From positions 32,001 through 96,000 of the forward strand of contig JBHLNF010000005.1 of assembly GCA_048937405.1 (NCBI GenBank): a stretch of 64,000 nucleotides of DNA, given 5' to 3'. A program made the translations under genes and the position numbers. Shown piece by piece: positions 36,210 to 42,998 of this stretch (its first letter is position 1; every line of letters begins with the position of its first letter). This DNA is from Promethearchaeota archaeon (GTDB lineage: Archaea; Asgardarchaeota; Lokiarchaeia; Sigyniarchaeales; SOKP01). A model generated the notes under the pieces. It had not been told where the DNA came from, did not search any database, and worked only from the letters and a program-made list of their open reading frames with translations.

Positions 36210-36650
36210 ATGATTGAAGAAGAAGACGATGAGGATGTACTAAAAAAAAAAATTACATTAAAAAGTGTTTTAAAAAACATATTATTAATTCTATTAATGG
36301 TATTAGGCGGTATATTCATTTATCTTGATATTGGGCTTGATACCGTCTCAAGTTGGACAATTGGTATCATGCTAATGTGTCTTGGATTATCTTTAGTCCA
36401 AATTCAAAAAACCCCTCCTGAACCTATCAGACAGACTCTTTCAATACTAATCTGTAACTTATGTGGTCTTACAAAAGTAAGAAACTATGAGAAAGGAGAC
36501 TTTGTCTTTAAAAGATTAGATAAATGTGAAAAATGTAATGATTTAATGGAGATAAAAGATATATATTCTGTAAGGTTAAAGAGTCCTACTGAAAAAAATA
36601 AGGGACAAGAAAGTAATAGGGATTCTCAAAAAGAAAATATCAAAAAATAA
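36210..36650 (+). CDS. Small two-TM protein with a C-terminal zinc ribbon
   Basis: Two hydrophobic helices, then CNLCG..GDFVF..CEKC; ATG at 36210. Confidence 0.7.
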   Translation: MIEEEDDEDVLKKKITLKSVLKNILLILLMVLGGIFIYLDIGLDTVSSWTIGIMLMCLGLSLVQIQKTPPEPIRQTLSILICNLCGLTKVRNYEKGDFVFKRLDKCEKCNDLMEIKDIYSVRLKSPTEKNKGQESNRDSQKENIKK

Positions 36651-36687
36651 ATATCTAATCTTATTCAATTAATAGGAGGTTCTTCAG

Positions 36688-37131
36688 ATTCTCAAAAAAG
36701 TAGGATTAGGAGGAACTTTCGATCATCTTCATGAAGGTCATAAATATCTATTAAAAATAGCCCTCTCTATTTCTGAAAATATTGAAATTGGATTAACAAC
36801 TCAGGATTTACTAAAAAATAAGCAATATTCTTCAAAATTGGAAAATTATCAAACTAGAAAAAAAAAATTAAAAAACTACATTAGTTCTATTACCGATTTA
36901 AATCGAATTAATATTGTTGAGATATCAAATTGGGCGGATATGGATGAATGTGCTCAAGATCCAGAATATGAGGGCTTAGTAGTCAGTCAAGAAACATATG
37001 ATAATGCTTTAAAGTTAAATGAAAATAGAACGAAAAGTGGGCTAAATCCTCTTGTTCTAATTGTTATACCACTTCTAAAGGATGATAATAACAATAAAAT
37101 TAGTTCTACATCAATAAGAGCTAAACTATAG
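36688..37131 (+). CDS. coaD: Phosphopantetheine adenylyltransferase (archaeal/eukaryotic-type cytidylyltransferase fold); probable ATT start
   Basis: In-frame extension upstream of ORF 36838 reads ILKKVGLGGTFDHLHEGHKYLL. Downstream motifs VVSQET, NENR and KISSTSIR. SD AGGAGGT at 36674-36680. Confidence 0.88.
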   Translation: MLKKVGLGGTFDHLHEGHKYLLKIALSISENIEIGLTTQDLLKNKQYSSKLENYQTRKKKLKNYISSITDLNRINIVEISNWADMDECAQDPEYEGLVVSQETYDNALKLNENRTKSGLNPLVLIVIPLLKDDNNNKISSTSIRAKL

Positions 37132-37218
37132 AAAACTTATTTTTAAATTGAAATTAAGAAAAATTGATAAAAAAAACAAAAATTTTTACATAATTCTAGA
37201 TATTACTATAATCAAGAA

Positions 37219-37407
37219 CTTTATTCTAGTGATTTGATGATTATGGAATGGTATCCTGAAACTATATATATGAAAATAAGTTCCTTCCAAAAATCATACT
37301 ACTTTAGATTCTTTATTCTGCCAAGGGAATAATTTTTTCAAACTAAATTTAGTCCCTTGGCTGCGGATTTTTTGATTTTAAATTTAGTATAATCCACTTT
37401 TTTGCAG
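37219..37407. promoter_or_regulatory. Structured element of three hairpins (attenuator-like leader or ncRNA)
   Basis: H1 at 37227-37301 (TAGT/ACTA, ATGATT/AATCAT, TGGAA/TTCCA). H2 GCCAAGGGA 37320-37328 / TCCCTTGGC 37353-37361. H3 GGATT 37365-37369 / AATCC 37391-37395 followed by T6 at 37398-37403. Confidence 0.55.
37270..37332 (+). CDS. Putative Phe-rich leader peptide (MKISSFQKSYYFRFFILPRE) upstream of pheST-pheA
   Basis: ATG 37270 to TAA 37330-37332; 4 Phe and 2 Tyr, clustered as YYFRFF; in-frame ATGs also at 37237 and 37243. Confidence 0.4.
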   Translation: MKISSFQKSYYFRFFILPRE

Positions 37408-37466
37408 TAAAATTTAGAAAACATCCTTCTAATTCAAGAAAGAGTAATTTACAATAACTAAATCCA

Positions 37467-37481
37467 CGAAAGATTTAAATA
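37467..37481 (+). promoter_or_regulatory. Candidate archaeal promoter (BRE + TATA) for pheS
   Basis: CGAAAG-A-TTTAAATA about 55 nt upstream of the pheS ATG; the AT-rich background lowers specificity. Confidence 0.4.
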
Positions 37482-37535
37482 CGTTAGAGATTTTAAAAGA
37501 TATAAGAAAAACGTAATTTAATTTGGAATTAATTT

Positions 37536-39071
37536 ATGACGATTCGACTTAAAAGAGAAGTAATTGATATTTTAAGGGTATTAAAGAAAAAAAATTCAGA
37601 AATACTCGCAACAGAATTAGCAAAAGAACTTAAAATTGACTATATTGTACTTATGTCTGCGATCAATAGCTTGATTGAATACAATTTAGGAGGATTTAAA
37701 GAAAAAGATGTTCATCAAATCACTTTAAATAATGAAGGTAATAAATATTTAAAAGAAGGGCTTCCTGAACGTCAATTATTAAATATCTTATTAGAAAATA
37801 ATATTAAAGAAATTACTTTAGATGATTTCTTAAAAAAATCTAATTTGGATAAAAATATCTTCTATATTGGAATTTCAAATTTAAAAAAAAATCGTTGGAT
37901 ATCTCAAAGTAAAGCTTCAGGAAAGAATAAAATATTTCTTACAGCAGATAAGTTTCCTGAAACAGATATTGAAAAATTTCTTTTAAATTTTGAAAAAAAC
38001 TCTGTCATTGATTATTCTACAATCTCAAAAAATGAAATTAAGCAATTAGATTCATTAAATAAAAGGAAATTAATAAAAAAACATTATAAAACTAATAGAA
38101 TTATATATTTAACAGATAAAGGGAAAAAGATTGAACTTTCAAAAATTAAAGAATTAGCAGAAGTAAGTAAAATAACTTCTGAGATGCTAGTCTCTGGAAC
38201 TTGGAAAGATTATGATTTAAAATTATTTGATGTTACTAAACCTGGACCATTATTAAAAGCAGGAAAATTACATCCAATGATAAAATTAATTAATGAAATA
38301 AGAGAAATATTCATTTCTATGGGATTTACTGAGATAAGAGGTCCTATTATTGAAAGTGCATTTTACAATTTTGATGCTCTATTTCAACCACAAGATCATC
38401 CCGCTAGAGAAATGCAAGATACTTTTTATTTAAATAATCCAAAATTGGCAAAATTACCAAAAAAAGATAGAGTTCAAGCAGTTAAAGAAACACATGAAAA
38501 TGGAGGTGACTCAGGTTCTCATGGATGGGGTTATAAGTGGGATATAAGTACAGCTCAAAAAACAGTGTTAAGGACTCACACTACAGCAACAACAATAAGA
38601 AGATTAGCAGAATATTATAAAAATAATGAAAAACCCCCCATTAAAGTTTTTTGTATAGATAGAGTTTTTAGAAACGAAAAAGTAGATAGATCTCATTTAG
38701 CAGAATTTACTCAAGTTGAAGGAATAGTTATAGATGACAATGTAACCCTTTGTGATTTAATTGGAGTACTATCAGAATTTTACAGAAAATTAGGTTTTAA
38801 GAAAATTATAACTAGACCTGGATTTTTCCCTTATACTGAACCGAGTATGGAAATTTCTGTATATTATGAGAAAATGGGTGAATGGTTAGAAATGGGTGGT
38901 TCTGGTATTTTTCGACCAGAAGTCACATATCCTTGGGGAATAAAAAATCCAACACGTGTTTTGGCATGGGGACAAGGACTAGAAAGAATAGCAATGTTAT
39001 ACTTTAATCGTGATGATATGAGAGATTTATATATTAATCCAATTAAATGGTTAAGGAGTCAATCATACTAA
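37536..39071 (+). CDS. pheS: Phenylalanine--tRNA ligase alpha subunit (archaeal/eukaryotic type)
   Basis: N-terminal winged-helix region, GKLHP, NFDALFQPQDHPAREMQDTFY, LRTHTT, DRVFRNE, FFPYTEPS, WGQGLER. Confidence 0.97.
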   Translation: MTIRLKREVIDILRVLKKKNSEILATELAKELKIDYIVLMSAINSLIEYNLGGFKEKDVHQITLNNEGNKYLKEGLPERQLLNILLENNIKEITLDDFLKKSNLDKNIFYIGISNLKKNRWISQSKASGKNKIFLTADKFPETDIEKFLLNFEKNSVIDYSTISKNEIKQLDSLNKRKLIKKHYKTNRIIYLTDKGKKIELSKIKELAEVSKITSEMLVSGTWKDYDLKLFDVTKPGPLLKAGKLHPMIKLINEIREIFISMGFTEIRGPIIESAFYNFDALFQPQDHPAREMQDTFYLNNPKLAKLPKKDRVQAVKETHENGGDSGSHGWGYKWDISTAQKTVLRTHTTATTIRRLAEYYKNNEKPPIKVFCIDRVFRNEKVDRSHLAEFTQVEGIVIDDNVTLCDLIGVLSEFYRKLGFKKIITRPGFFPYTEPSMEISVYYEKMGEWLEMGGSGIFRPEVTYPWGIKNPTRVLAWGQGLERIAMLYFNRDDMRDLYINPIKWLRSQSY

Positions 39072-39089: not shown

Positions 39090-40766
39090 TTGCCAACAAT
39101 AGAATTAAAAATTGAAAGGCTAGAGAAATTAGTTGGAAAAAAATTAGAGATTAAGGATTTAGAATATGATTTACAGTGGATCGGTTTGGATTTAGAGGAT
39201 ATTGATGAAGAGGAACAAAAAATTAAAGTAGAATATAATCCAAATAGACCTGATTTTTCAAGTCCAGAAGGAATTGCTAGAGCACTTAAGGGTTACTATG
39301 AAATTGAAATTGGTTCGCCTACATTTGAAATTATTCCTGGAGAAATAGAATTAAATGTCGATCCAATAGTAAATCAAGTTCGACCATATATTGTATGTGG
39401 TGTTATAAGAGATATAGATTTGGATGAAGATGAAGTTGGGACATTGATGACTATACAAGAACATCTTCATTGGGCAGTTGGACGAGACAGAAAAAAGGTT
39501 GCAATAGGTGTCCATGATCTTGATAAAATTCTTCCTCCATTTCGATATACTGCGGTAAAACCAGATTCAGTAAGTTTTATTCCTCTCCATGGTGATGGAT
39601 ATCCAATGAATTTGGAGGAAATATTATTATTGCATGAAAAAGGAATAGAATATGCTCATATATTAGAAGGGAAAGAAGTATATCCCATAATTTTTGATAG
39701 TAATGATGAAGTTTTATCATTTCCTCCAGTGATAAATGGAATTTTAACAACCGTGACAGATGAAACAAAAAATCTATTTTTGGATCTAACCGGAACAGAT
39801 TTTAAAGCAATTAATTTAGCTTTAAATATTTTATCAACGACTCTAGCAGACATGGGTGCTAAAATTGAAAGTGTAAAAGTAAATTATGAGGATAAAGAAA
39901 ATATTATTACTCCTAATTTTACTCCTGAAAAATGGGAAGTTGGGATTAGTTATATAAATGATTATATTGGTTTAAATTTATCATCTAAGGAAATGATTAA
40001 ATGTTTTAATAAAGTTAGATTAGATGCGAAGCAGTCCAGCAAGAAGGATACCTTAAATATTTGGGTACCAACATACAGAGGAGATTTTATGCATGTTGTC
40101 GACTTTACAGAAGAGTGTGCGATTGGGTATGGTTATGAAAAATTACCAAGAACTATCAGTGAAGGATGTATCGGAGAGTATCATTATATTCAGTCATTTT
40201 CTAATAAAATAAGACATTTATTAATTGGAGCAGGATATCTAGAAGTTCTTAATTTTATATTATCTAATTCTGAAAAACATTATGACTATATGAATATAAA
40301 GTATGAAGAATCAAATCAGGTTGGGATTTTAAATCCCGTATCAAGAGAATACAATACTACAAGAACATTATTATTACCAAAATTAATGGAAACACTTCTA
40401 TATAATAGATCTGAAGAAAAGCCAATTAAGATTTTTGAAGTTGGAGACGTTATAATATTAGATTCTAAAGAAGAAACTGGTGCTAAAAGAGAAGTTCATC
40501 TTTCAGCTGTTTCTTATCATGAAAATGCTAACTTTACTGAAATAAGATCTTTATCAGATTTCCTTATGATTTCTCTTGGGTGTTATAGTGATTATCAAAT
40601 TAAACCTGAGGAAAGTTCCACATACATTAAAGGTCGATGTGGCGGAATCTATGTTAAGAATAAAAAAGTTGGAGAAATTGGTGAAATTAATCCTGAAGTC
40701 TTATTAAATTTCAAATTAGAATTCCCGGTTGCAGCCATTGAGTTAAATCTACAGGCTTTTATGTAA
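39090..40766 (+). CDS. pheT: Phenylalanine--tRNA ligase beta subunit
   Basis: MPTI, NRPDF, QEHLH..GRDRKKVAIGVHD, SFPPVIN, PTYRGD, IFEVGDV, GEINP. Confidence 0.96.
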   Translation: MPTIELKIERLEKLVGKKLEIKDLEYDLQWIGLDLEDIDEEEQKIKVEYNPNRPDFSSPEGIARALKGYYEIEIGSPTFEIIPGEIELNVDPIVNQVRPYIVCGVIRDIDLDEDEVGTLMTIQEHLHWAVGRDRKKVAIGVHDLDKILPPFRYTAVKPDSVSFIPLHGDGYPMNLEEILLLHEKGIEYAHILEGKEVYPIIFDSNDEVLSFPPVINGILTTVTDETKNLFLDLTGTDFKAINLALNILSTTLADMGAKIESVKVNYEDKENIITPNFTPEKWEVGISYINDYIGLNLSSKEMIKCFNKVRLDAKQSSKKDTLNIWVPTYRGDFMHVVDFTEECAIGYGYEKLPRTISEGCIGEYHYIQSFSNKIRHLLIGAGYLEVLNFILSNSEKHYDYMNIKYEESNQVGILNPVSREYNTTRTLLLPKLMETLLYNRSEEKPIKIFEVGDVIILDSKEETGAKREVHLSAVSYHENANFTEIRSLSDFLMISLGCYSDYQIKPEESSTYIKGRCGGIYVKNKKVGEIGEINPEVLLNFKLEFPVAAIELNLQAFM

Positions 40767-40816: not shown

Positions 40817-41920
40817 ATGAATGAGAAAACGAATAATAAAAATGAATTAGAAAATTATCGAAAGGAAATTAACAATATCGATAATAAACTCATTGAACTC
40901 TTGAACGAAAGAAGTAAATTTGTTCAAAAGATAGGAAATCTCAAAATAAAATTAAGAATGGATACACATCAGCCAAAAAGAGAAAAGGAGATAATAGATA
41001 GAATTAAACAAAAATCAACAATATTAAAACCAATGAGTATTGAAGCTATTTGGAAAGAAATTATTAGTGCAAGTAAACTCATTCAAGGTTTCGTTGATAA
41101 AGTAGGATTTTTAGGACCAAAGGGTACATTTACCCATCAAGCCGCATTGGAATATTTTCCAAAAGCAGGTACGGAATTCATATCATTCAATAATACACTA
41201 GAAATATTTGAGAATATCGCAAAAGAAATTATAGATTTTGGTATTATTCCAATTGAAAATAGCCTTCAAGGCACAGTTAGAGAAAATCTGGATTTATTAA
41301 TTGAAAAAGATTTGTTTATCTATGGAGAAATAGAACTGAGGATTATTCAAAATTTAATTTCGTTAAATATATCTGATCTCTCAAAAATCGAGAATATAAT
41401 TTCGCATCCACAAGCATTTGCCCAAACAAGAAAATGGCTCAAAACAAATATGCCGACTGCAAATTTAATCAATACCAGCTCAACTGCTGAAGCAGTTCGA
41501 AGGGTTAGTGAGTTAAATAATGAAAGTTATGCTGCCATTGGTACAGAGTTTTCAAGTAAATTATATGGTTTAAAAGTTTTAAATTCTAGAATTGAAGATG
41601 ATCCCTCAAACTATACAAGATTCTTAATTATATCAAAAAAAGAAAATGAATATATAGAAGGAAATATTAAAACCTCGATAGTTTTTGTGACGAAACATAT
41701 TCCAGGAGCTTTATATGGCGTGTTGAAAATTTTTGCGGATACAAACATAAATTTGTCAAAAATTGAATCACGACCGAGAAGAAAGGGACGATGGGAATAT
41801 ATTTTTCTCATGGATTTTGAGGGAGATAAGGATAATCCAAAAATAAAAAAAGCAATCGAAAAAATGAAAGAAAATGTTATTTGGTATAAAATTTTAGGTT
41901 CTTATCCTTTAAAAAAATAA
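40817..41920 (+). CDS. pheA: Chorismate mutase / prephenate dehydratase (P-protein)
   Basis: AroQ domain (RKEINNIDNKLIELLNER..RE), FLGPKGTF, PIENS, SHPQA, NYTRF, ACT motif KIESRP. Confidence 0.95.
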   Translation: MNEKTNNKNELENYRKEINNIDNKLIELLNERSKFVQKIGNLKIKLRMDTHQPKREKEIIDRIKQKSTILKPMSIEAIWKEIISASKLIQGFVDKVGFLGPKGTFTHQAALEYFPKAGTEFISFNNTLEIFENIAKEIIDFGIIPIENSLQGTVRENLDLLIEKDLFIYGEIELRIIQNLISLNISDLSKIENIISHPQAFAQTRKWLKTNMPTANLINTSSTAEAVRRVSELNNESYAAIGTEFSSKLYGLKVLNSRIEDDPSNYTRFLIISKKENEYIEGNIKTSIVFVTKHIPGALYGVLKIFADTNINLSKIESRPRRKGRWEYIFLMDFEGDKDNPKIKKAIEKMKENVIWYKILGSYPLKK

Positions 41921-42284: not shown

Positions 42285-42998
42285 ATGTCTGATATAAGAA
42301 TTGATGGACGAAAATTTGATGAGCTTCGCGAAATATCGATAAAAAGGAATTACCTTAAATATCCCGAAGGTTCTGTTTTGATAACTCAGGGAAACACAAA
42401 AATAATAATAACAGCATCCATAATAGAATCAGTTCCAAGATTTTTAGTAGATACAGGGACAGGTTGGATAACTGCCGAGTATTCAATGTTACCAAGGGCA
42501 ACACAAGTAAGAAATCAAAGAGAGCTTAATAGAGGAAGATCAGTTGAAATACAACGATTAATAGGGCGGAGTATACGTGCAGGTTTTAATTATGAAAAAC
42601 TTGGTGAACGTACAATAAGAATTGATTGTGATGTTATCCAAGCAGATGGAGGGACTAGATGTGCTGCTATAACTGGAGCTTTTGTAGCAGTTTTTGATGC
42701 TTTAAATTATCTATATAATCAACAACTTATTTATGATTTTCCAGATTATAGGGTGATATCAGCAGTATCTTTAGGTTTAAAAAATGATCAGATTTTATTA
42801 GATCTAAATTATCATGAAGATTCGAAAGTTGATGTAGATTTTAATTTAATTATGAATGAAGATTCAGAGATTATTGAAATTCAAGGTACTGCTGAAGGTA
42901 CTCCTTTTACAAAGAAAAAGTTAAATGAAATTATTGATTTGGGAGAAAAAGGGATTATGGAATTGATAAAAATTCAAAAGAAAGAATTAAATATATAA
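42285..42998 (+). CDS. rph: Ribonuclease PH (bacterial type)
   Basis: RIDGR, GWITAEYSMLPRAT, GRSVEIQRLIGRS, DCDVIQADGGTR, DLNYHED, EIQGTAEG. Confidence 0.93.
   Translation: MSDIRIDGRKFDELREISIKRNYLKYPEGSVLITQGNTKIIITASIIESVPRFLVDTGTGWITAEYSMLPRATQVRNQRELNRGRSVEIQRLIGRSIRAGFNYEKLGERTIRIDCDVIQADGGTRCAAITGAFVAVFDALNYLYNQQLIYDFPDYRVISAVSLGLKNDQILLDLNYHEDSKVDVDFNLIMNEDSEIIEIQGTAEGTPFTKKKLNEIIDLGEKGIMELIKIQKKELNI

Follow-up and report, generated by a model that had tools for sequence, protein, structure and literature searches.

In a 64,000-nt stretch of the genome of a Promethearchaeota archaeon (the window: assembly GCA_048937405.1, contig JBHLNF010000005.1, positions 32,001 to 96,000 of the forward strand), the pheS-pheT-pheA genes, which encode the two subunits of phenylalanyl-tRNA synthetase (PheRS) and a phenylalanine-biosynthesis enzyme, are preceded by a short open reading frame (ORF) that carries a cluster of Phe codons and runs into a GC-rich hairpin. 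This ORF is probably a translated leader peptide, by means of which the ribosome monitors how much charged tRNA-Phe is available for the operon, and the element is best read as a Phe sensor built differently from bacterial attenuators. A first-pass annotation of the same DNA had proposed a pheM-like attenuator with competing hairpins; Phe sensing is kept here as the favoured reading, whereas a pheM-type design with a single upstream promoter is not supported, because a second promoter-like site directly before pheS (P2) is conserved at a typical promoter distance. All the sequence features listed in that proposal (the short ORF, the stems, two complementary 9-mers, a T6 tract and a B recognition element (BRE)/TATA-like site) were found in place.

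The loci of relatives were located with the PheS protein, and frame, start, stop and codon counts refer to 50 distinct relative sequences. The leader frame was free of stops over 29 codons in all 50, against 7 and 1 of 50 for the other two frames; an ATG or TTG stood exactly 29 codons before the stop in 32, and all but one of the remaining relatives had one of these codons within three codons of that position. The ORF ended with TAA in 42 sequences, TAG in seven and TGA in one. Furthermore, indels within the ORF kept the frame (-9 nt in L032 and L035 and -6 nt in L071, in the 24-member family alignment), and a second alignment suggests +6-nt insertions in L037 and L074. Codons 2-14 showed near-maximal entropy at all three codon positions, so that the N-terminal half drifts, while codons 15-29 were constrained, with third positions changing more, through TTT/TTC, CTG/TTG and AGG/AGA swaps. 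The always open frame, the retained start column, the occurrence of every stop codon, the in-frame indels and the synonymous changes all point to translation of the leader ORF, and the alignments indicate that it is under selection to remain open. The first-pass annotation had begun it at 37270, as MKISSFQKSYYFRFFILPRE* (37270-37332); the ORF itself is real, but that ATG is internal to the 29-codon ORF and the conserved start lies at 37243.

The constrained half of the peptide is where Phe is concentrated. Codons 16-25 held on average 4.0 Phe (range 2-6) vs. 0.88 in the preceding 13 codons, while the same DNA read in the other frames gave 1.7-2.2 and the genome-average Phe content is 5.3%. Codon F24 was TTT in 50 of 50 sequences, and Phe was found at F23 and at F21 in 42 of 50 each, with TTT/TTC interchange at both; TTC made up 33.5% of the Phe codons of the cluster, compared with 19.5% genome-wide. 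Moreover, the spacer between F24 and the stem was 5 nt in every aligned sequence.

The 5' arm of this stem is formed by codons 26-29 of the leader, and the stop codon opens its 24-nt loop. The folding energy of the hairpin is -18.3 kcal/mol (z -4.3 relative to dinucleotide shuffles, none of 200 being as good), while the whole 151-nt region has a z of -2.2. The first-pass annotation had called the stem conspicuous, and rightly so: in this genome (GC content 28.9%), only seven perfect intergenic stems with 8 or more base pairs and five or more G/C were found, namely two tRNAs, the pheS-leader hairpin and four others (C22:18731-18771, C6:4486-4510, C7:370873-370902 and C7:803820-803839, all of genome G000). 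RNAalifold, applied to 16 genus members and to 24 family members, recovered the hairpin as the sole conserved structure. Stem cells were paired in 95% of cases against 36-66% for slid-partner controls, and 10 cells were changed on both sides, which none of 500 shuffles reached; six of the ten stem pairs were invariant on both arms (GCCAAG/CTTGGC), and loop lengths differed by 1-12 nt among relatives. An alignment of pheS upstream regions, the check proposed in the first-pass annotation for a Phe-rich ORF and a covarying stem, thus found both in the family.

One genus of the family (g12) is informative on what is conserved. Here, the peptide ends ...SLFFI*, lacking LPRE, and the stop stands immediately 5' of the stem (CCCAAGAG...CTCTTGGG), which places the hairpin outside the coding sequence; it has nevertheless been retained, its base showing a compensatory change, and the spacing from Phe to stem is the same. 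Elsewhere, the stop lies 3-7 codons past Leu26. Since the stop moves while the spacing between F24 and the stem is fixed, it is the distance from codon to hairpin that is conserved, and not the C-terminus of the peptide. As judged from the alignments, conservation therefore covers translation, the cluster of Phe codons, the hairpin and the spacing of these two, but not the last residues of the peptide.

With regard to distribution, a strict hairpin pattern had a single match in each of 73 genomes, out of 134, of one Promethearchaeia family and no match in 26 genomes from six other families, controls with the reversed pattern also yielding none, and a covariance model matched 98 of 125 family genomes with one match each, including exactly one in this genome, and 0 of 24 genomes of six sister families. 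Across all prokaryote genomes, the matches listed for the strict pattern were mostly chance matches in bacteria. Nine of the 12 genus members without a match were checked: G003, G005, G013, G016 and G091 had no PheS match or were unsearched, G011, G014 and G024 had a partial PheS match, and G006 has an N-run over the element. In two relatives, L010 (G006) and L046 (G085), the element is unreadable because N-runs cover or adjoin the leader region. The hairpin ended 167-184 nt before the start of pheS in 28 of 29 loci and 98 nt before it in one; orientation and distance to pheS were fixed across at least 11 genera, also where the other neighbour changes, and the long gap before pheS is retained in the genus, that of other families of the order being 30-126 nt. 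These comparisons indicate that the element is strictly linked to pheS, and the tie proposed earlier between a Phe-rich leader and pheS-pheT-pheA has been borne out by the open frame, the conserved cluster and this distribution.

Leaders of the same kind were detected elsewhere in the genome, where a scan of upstream short ORFs yielded cases before trpD, trpB2 and hisIE. The trpB2 leader, MATVRNFCWQWPWRWR* (contig C7, minus strand; L207:2743-2793 -), has 16 codons, four of them Trp, and lies 149 nt upstream of a TrpB-like gene (C7:22178-23593; NCBIfam E 3e-191); its stop falls in the loop of a GTTGGC/GCCAAC hairpin, which is followed by a T-rich tract, and an ORF of the type WxWxW(xW) was present 144-163 nt upstream in 19 of 29 other family loci inspected, which span more than one genus. 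The trpD leader, MANEKIIPFRWHWFWRA* (contig C11, minus strand; L241:2400-2453 -), has 17 codons, three of them Trp, and lies 186 nt upstream of trpD (L241:1149-2213 -), and a GCGCG/CGCGC hairpin has the stop codon of this ORF in its loop. In both leaders, a short hairpin rich in G/C begins at the last regulatory codon, and the stop lies within it or beside it. Before hisIE, a 54-codon ORF ending ...NSYLHHWLHHE* lies 81 nt upstream of the hisIE-containing ORF (C7, 728785-729693, L263), a gap that may be longer, given that the longest ORF call extends ~108 residues upstream of the HisIE match. In a genome-wide search for GC-rich stop-codon hairpins with amino-acid-biased ORF tails, the pheS leader ranked first and the trpB2 leader fourth among 19 candidates. 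Because Trp accounts for 1% of codons in this genome, the Trp leaders are not compositional accidents, and with them the case for a ribosome-based reading of the Phe element gains much in likelihood. They share with the pheS leader a promoter-like box of their own, a short ORF with cognate codons at its end, a small stop-codon hairpin rich in G/C and 150-200 nt to the gene; unlike the Trp and His ones, the pheS leader precedes an aminoacyl-tRNA synthetase together with a biosynthetic gene, has the longest and strongest hairpin and is followed by a clear second promoter before the structural genes.

Several further observations were made in these scans. Immediately upstream of trpD are palindromic boxes (ATTGAATTCCAAT; ACACAT..ATGTGT) that also occur at the trpB2 leader, which points to a Trp-specific operator or RNA element common to the two. 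A third Trp-containing candidate, MTTIRKNLDLRKSFINWFWVLHWHV* (...INWFWVLHWHV*; contig C28, L238:321-398, plus strand), terminates within the loop of GCACGT/ACGTGC, after which come GCAATGG and T8, in the layout of the trpB2 leader, but it lies 212 nt upstream of a GNAT plus methyltransferase gene without an obvious link to tryptophan. Two short ORFs extremely rich in Met, with as many as 8 among 10 residues, precede pyrG (CTP synthase; C2, 16677-18353) and an Hsp20 gene (C13, 28763-29320); they were dropped as leaders, being probably ATG-rich simple sequence before unrelated genes, and several short ORFs biased towards His, Cys or Arg were dropped because the genes downstream are unrelated.

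The coordinates of the pheS locus are collected in Table 1.

Table 1. Features of the pheS leader region and neighbouring genes (window positions).
Feature	Position	Strand	Description
Cytidylyltransferase-like (coaD-like) gene	36650-37131		Upstream neighbour of the leader
P1, BRE/TATA-like box	37178-37189	+	AAAAATTTTTAC; family consensus AAAATTTTTTAG; ~55 nt before the leader ORF
Conserved box, presumed leader 5' untranslated region	37221-37236	+	Consensus GAATnCTTGAGnAG; 7-20 nt before the start codon
Leader ORF, 29 codons	37243-37332	+	MEWYPETIYMKISSFQKSYYFRFFILPRE*; ATG at 37243, TAA ending at 37332
Regulatory codon cluster, codons 19-24	37297-37314	+	YYFRFF here, FFFxFF in most relatives
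Conserved hairpin	37320-37361	+	5' arm GCCAAGGGA (37320-37328), 3' arm TCCCTTGGC (37353-37361)
Alternative-pairing 9-mers	37342-37350; 37380-37388		ACTAAATTT; AAATTTAGT
Post-hairpin motif	37362-37373	+	TGCGGAT then T6; TGCGGA kept in most genera
Second hairpin	37365-37369; 37391-37395		GGATT/AATCC, then T6 (37398-37403); lineage-specific
Conserved box upstream of P2	37427-37466	+	TTCTAATTCAAGA...GCAATTT...GAT; family-wide
P2, consensus archaeal BRE/TATA	37467-37481	+	CGAAAGATTTAAATA (CGAAAG ATTTAAATA); 55-62 nt before the pheS ATG
Conserved box, P2 to expected pheS start site	37484-37505	+	TTAGAGATTTTAAAAGATATAA; family-wide
pheS, PheRS alpha subunit	37536-39071	+	Pfam tRNA-synt_2d, E 3e-89
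pheT, PheRS beta subunit	39090-40766	+	Pfam tRNA_synthFbeta, B5, B3_4, PhetRS_B1
pheA, chorismate mutase + prephenate dehydratase + ACT	40817-41920	+	Pfam CM_2, PDT, ACT
RNase PH gene	42285-42998	as pheA	Downstream of pheA

Two promoter-like sites frame the element. The box of P1, conserved to the same degree as P2, is near-invariant in the family alignments while its flanks drift, and it persists in L005 and L008, two loci in which another gene, on the other strand, takes the upstream position; P1 is the likely promoter of the leader transcript, as far as its conservation tells. P2 was kept in all genera examined, g12, g14 and g16 included, TTTAWATA boxes genome-wide peak at its distance from start codons, and in L037, where 75 nt of the spacer and the box upstream of P2 are deleted, P2 is retained. 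It is thus very probable that pheS has its own start site near 37505, and the earlier caution that this site could drive pheS independently is supported by its family-wide conservation at that distance. A pheS start near 37500 had also been named in the first-pass annotation as a finding that would count against its attenuator in simple form. Among the other conserved boxes, the one before the leader ORF is possibly a weak ribosome-binding region, the one upstream of P2 is a candidate regulator-binding site, and the one between P2 and the expected pheS start site is a possible operator or initiator region.

According to the proposed mechanism, P1 would make a transcript beginning with the 29-codon ORF, the first half of which would need only to be translated, the second half bearing the fixed Phe cluster (FFFxFF). 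Its last, invariant Phe codons are placed 5 nt upstream of the GC-rich hairpin, in which the last four codons of the ORF pair with a segment 24 nt further on. When Phe-tRNA is scarce, the ribosome would wait at F23/F24, its footprint extending 2-6 nt into the 5' arm, and would block the hairpin; when it is plentiful, the ribosome would reach the stop and depart, and the hairpin would form. The state of the hairpin would then set the share of P1 transcription that passes the ~175-nt spacer into pheS, adding to the output of P2, and the hairpin could act as an aid to a terminator, as a pause site as in speFL, or as the place where aCPSF1/FttA enters or halts. Ribosome stalling in the Phe cluster, the action of the hairpin, P1 read-through into pheS and the direction of the response are the parts of this scheme that we infer. 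The 3' boundary of a ribosome lies ~15 nt beyond the first base of its P site. From this footprint estimate, F24 in the A site would place the boundary at ~37324, with the first 5-6 nt of the 5' arm covered, and F23 in the A site would place it at the first two stem bases, so that the two best-conserved Phe codons are those where a stalled ribosome would block the hairpin. The logic of the operon also fits, because the leader-bearing family mostly has pheA together with pheST, while the sister family has neither pheA nor the leader.

Several points weigh against this reading. The Phe-richness of the copy in this genome is within chance for AT-rich DNA, since 127 of 7876 upstream short ORFs here have at least five Phe in 10 residues and the pheS leader has fewer, and its codons 19-20 are Tyr; the first-pass caution that TTT and TAT codons are frequent by chance therefore holds for the single sequence, and the significance of the cluster comes only from its conservation among relatives. 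By the same footprint estimate, a ribosome stalled at F19-F21 would not reach the stem, and a ribosome at the stop codon would melt the hairpin too, so that the two states would differ only in time. Moreover, the antiterminator-type pairing of the two 9-mers, on which the competing hairpins of the first proposal were built, was not conserved in the RNAalifold analyses of 16 and 24 sequences. Oligo-T after the hairpin is not conserved either (at least five T within 30 nt in 20 of 50 sequences, vs. 21% of intergenic windows), which leaves no recognisable terminator for a ribosome to control, and the stem is followed by a 6-nt spacer, TGCGGA. The second hairpin with its T6, also part of that proposal, fared no better, being recognisable in ~5-7 of the 16 genus sequences, among which one compensatory change was seen, and not in other genera; TGCGGAT is its 5' arm in this genome, and TGCGGA is absent in g12 and g16. 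Finally, the conservation of P2 means that pheS can be transcribed without passing the leader. Two other pairings were checked by eye only, that of CTTGAG in the box before the leader ORF with TTCAAGA in the box upstream of P2 and that between the 5' arm and a TTGGC close to where pheS begins, and covariation was seen in neither.

In Escherichia coli, pheST is controlled by an attenuator with the PheM leader peptide and pheA by one with PheL. The archaeal leader resembles them in being a short translated ORF with clustered Phe upstream of PheRS genes, and here of pheA too, in the overlap of its 3' end with an RNA stem, and in the presumed signal, stalling at scarce Phe-tRNA. It differs from them in the lack of sequence homology to pheM and of an Rfam match, in having one conserved hairpin and not a 1:2/2:3/3:4 set, in that a hairpin-plus-U-tract intrinsic terminator is not conserved, in the ~175 nt and the conserved BRE/TATA between leader and pheS, and in its archaeal host, whose RNA polymerase terminates by other rules.

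A strikingly similar layout is found in SpeFL of the speF operon of gamma-proteobacteria, a 34-aa leader whose C-terminal effector domain contains a Phe core; a pause hairpin covers the ORF's 3' end, a 257-nt spacer follows, and the leader senses free ornithine through a conserved N-terminal HIRRXXH domain and works through Rho (bioRxiv 10.1101/604074). Both leaders have ~30 codons, a Phe-rich C-terminal half, a 3'-end hairpin, a long spacer and the use of all stop codons, and in both control would be exerted by ribosome occupancy, not by alternative RNA folds; unlike SpeFL, the pheS leader has an unconstrained N-terminal half with no conserved sensor domain, and its enriched residue matches the pathway. 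Rho is not an archaeal factor. Mycobacterial polycysteine leaderless short ORFs are reported to be ribosome-based sensors upstream of amino-acid genes (bioRxiv 10.1101/834739); they are likewise rich in cognate codons and without classical terminator/antiterminator architecture, and differ in being bacterial and leaderless and in sensing Cys.

The kind of device is thus known from bacteria, and the pheS leader is a structurally different variant in Archaea. In our full-text literature search, no paper describing leader-peptide attenuation in archaea was found. We lean slightly towards the view that the Phe leader belongs to a set of cognate-codon leaders (Phe, Trp twice, His) by which one uncultured Asgard family ties the expression of amino-acid genes and of an aminoacyl-tRNA synthetase to the translation of a mini-gene, and that ribosome-mediated attenuation has thus arisen in Archaea, using a single stop-codon hairpin and, probably, the archaeal termination or pausing machinery. 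Leader-peptide attenuation is the textbook outcome of coupled transcription and translation in bacteria. If the reading is true, archaea near the eukaryotic stem, too, rely on the ribosome to sense amino-acid supply, and the locus offers a natural, sequence-defined test case for the influence of a translating ribosome on archaeal RNA polymerase (termination, pausing and factor access), as well as for the combination of an upstream regulated transcript with a gene's own promoter. A class of unannotated genes of 15-35 codons would also have been missed by gene callers.

The main rival, which we regard as unlikely, is an arrest peptide of the SpeFL/TnaC type, in which the Phe-rich C-terminal half would stall the ribosome from within the exit tunnel at or near the stop, perhaps on binding a small molecule such as free phenylalanine, and the RNA would be shielded from aCPSF1/FttA, in the place of Rho. 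It would account for conservation at the level of the peptide, where Q16, S18, F19-F24 and L26 are kept, the last through synonymous CTG/TTG, and it agrees with a length of 29 residues, about that of the exit tunnel, and with a layout matching that of SpeFL (a hairpin over the 3' end of the ORF, three stops in use and an untranslated spacer of ~200 nt). However, SpeFL needs an N-terminal sensor domain, whereas this N-terminal half is unconstrained, the C-terminus is dispensable in g12, and part of the conservation of the 14 C-terminal residues is explained by the stem. Induction of PheRS and a Phe-biosynthesis enzyme by high Phe would, furthermore, be the wrong regulatory logic, and the Trp and His leaders of the same genome follow a hungry-codon pattern, their residues matching the pathway. 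The free N-terminus, the g12 variant and the rule of the cognate residue argue, in these comparisons, for codon starvation.

Slightly less likely still is that the hairpin serves as a protein-binding site, for PheRS itself or for a processing or termination factor, with the ORF only modulating access or being irrelevant. Six invariant stem pairs exceed the needs of pairing and coding (the third position of CCA could covary and never does), the hairpin of g12 persists outside the coding region, and the TGCGGA flank is kept in most genera, all of which would suit a bound site. This explanation nevertheless leaves unaccounted for the open frame over 15 unconserved codons, the start column and the frame-specific Phe cluster; in addition, the loop is variable and has no conserved GAA anticodon-like motif, so that mimicry of the tRNA-Phe anticodon is not apparent from the alignments. 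ARAGORN found few tRNAs in the assembly, and no tRNA-Phe.

The least likely explanation, an independent small-protein gene transcribed from P1 and ending at the hairpin, with its neighbour pheS expressed only from P2, draws on two promoters that both look complete, on a hairpin that could mark the 3' end of a short transcript and on runs of at least five T about twice as frequent as background, but it is hard to reconcile with a peptide of which half is free, the stop is not fixed, the four C-terminal residues can go and the Phe cluster is the only constant feature, with an orientation and distance to pheS that hold despite the change of neighbour, and with Trp- and His-enriched ORFs before Trp and His genes, which unrelated small proteins do not explain.

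Other origins of the element were rejected. The hairpin is not a minus-strand terminator, as the A-rich tract comes after the hairpin on that strand, nor the terminator of the coaD-like gene, as the element remains with pheS in loci that have another upstream gene, encoded on the other strand, and it is not a repeat or mobile element, its 111-nt core being single-copy in the genome. On the minus strand of the gap, only two chance-sized ORFs (34 and 28 aa) were present, and a cmscan of 36500-38000 against Rfam with E up to 10 gave chance-level matches to unrelated families only.

In the window, the leader element is held in the 404-nt gap between the coaD-like gene and pheS. The coaD-like gene has no ATG, GTG or TTG where a start is expected; its stop-bounded frame has 151 aa, and the longest ORF from a common start has 97 aa. 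The product of pheA matches the NCBIfam prephenate dehydratase (E 2e-82). The order pheS-pheT-pheA-RNase PH was present in seven of 11 family loci checked, two others retaining only the chorismate-mutase part and two being without pheA, while the sister family (three genomes) has pheST only. In the leader-bearing family loci compared (L242-L251), the RNase PH gene follows pheA on the same strand, and in the sister family it lies after pheT on the opposite strand.

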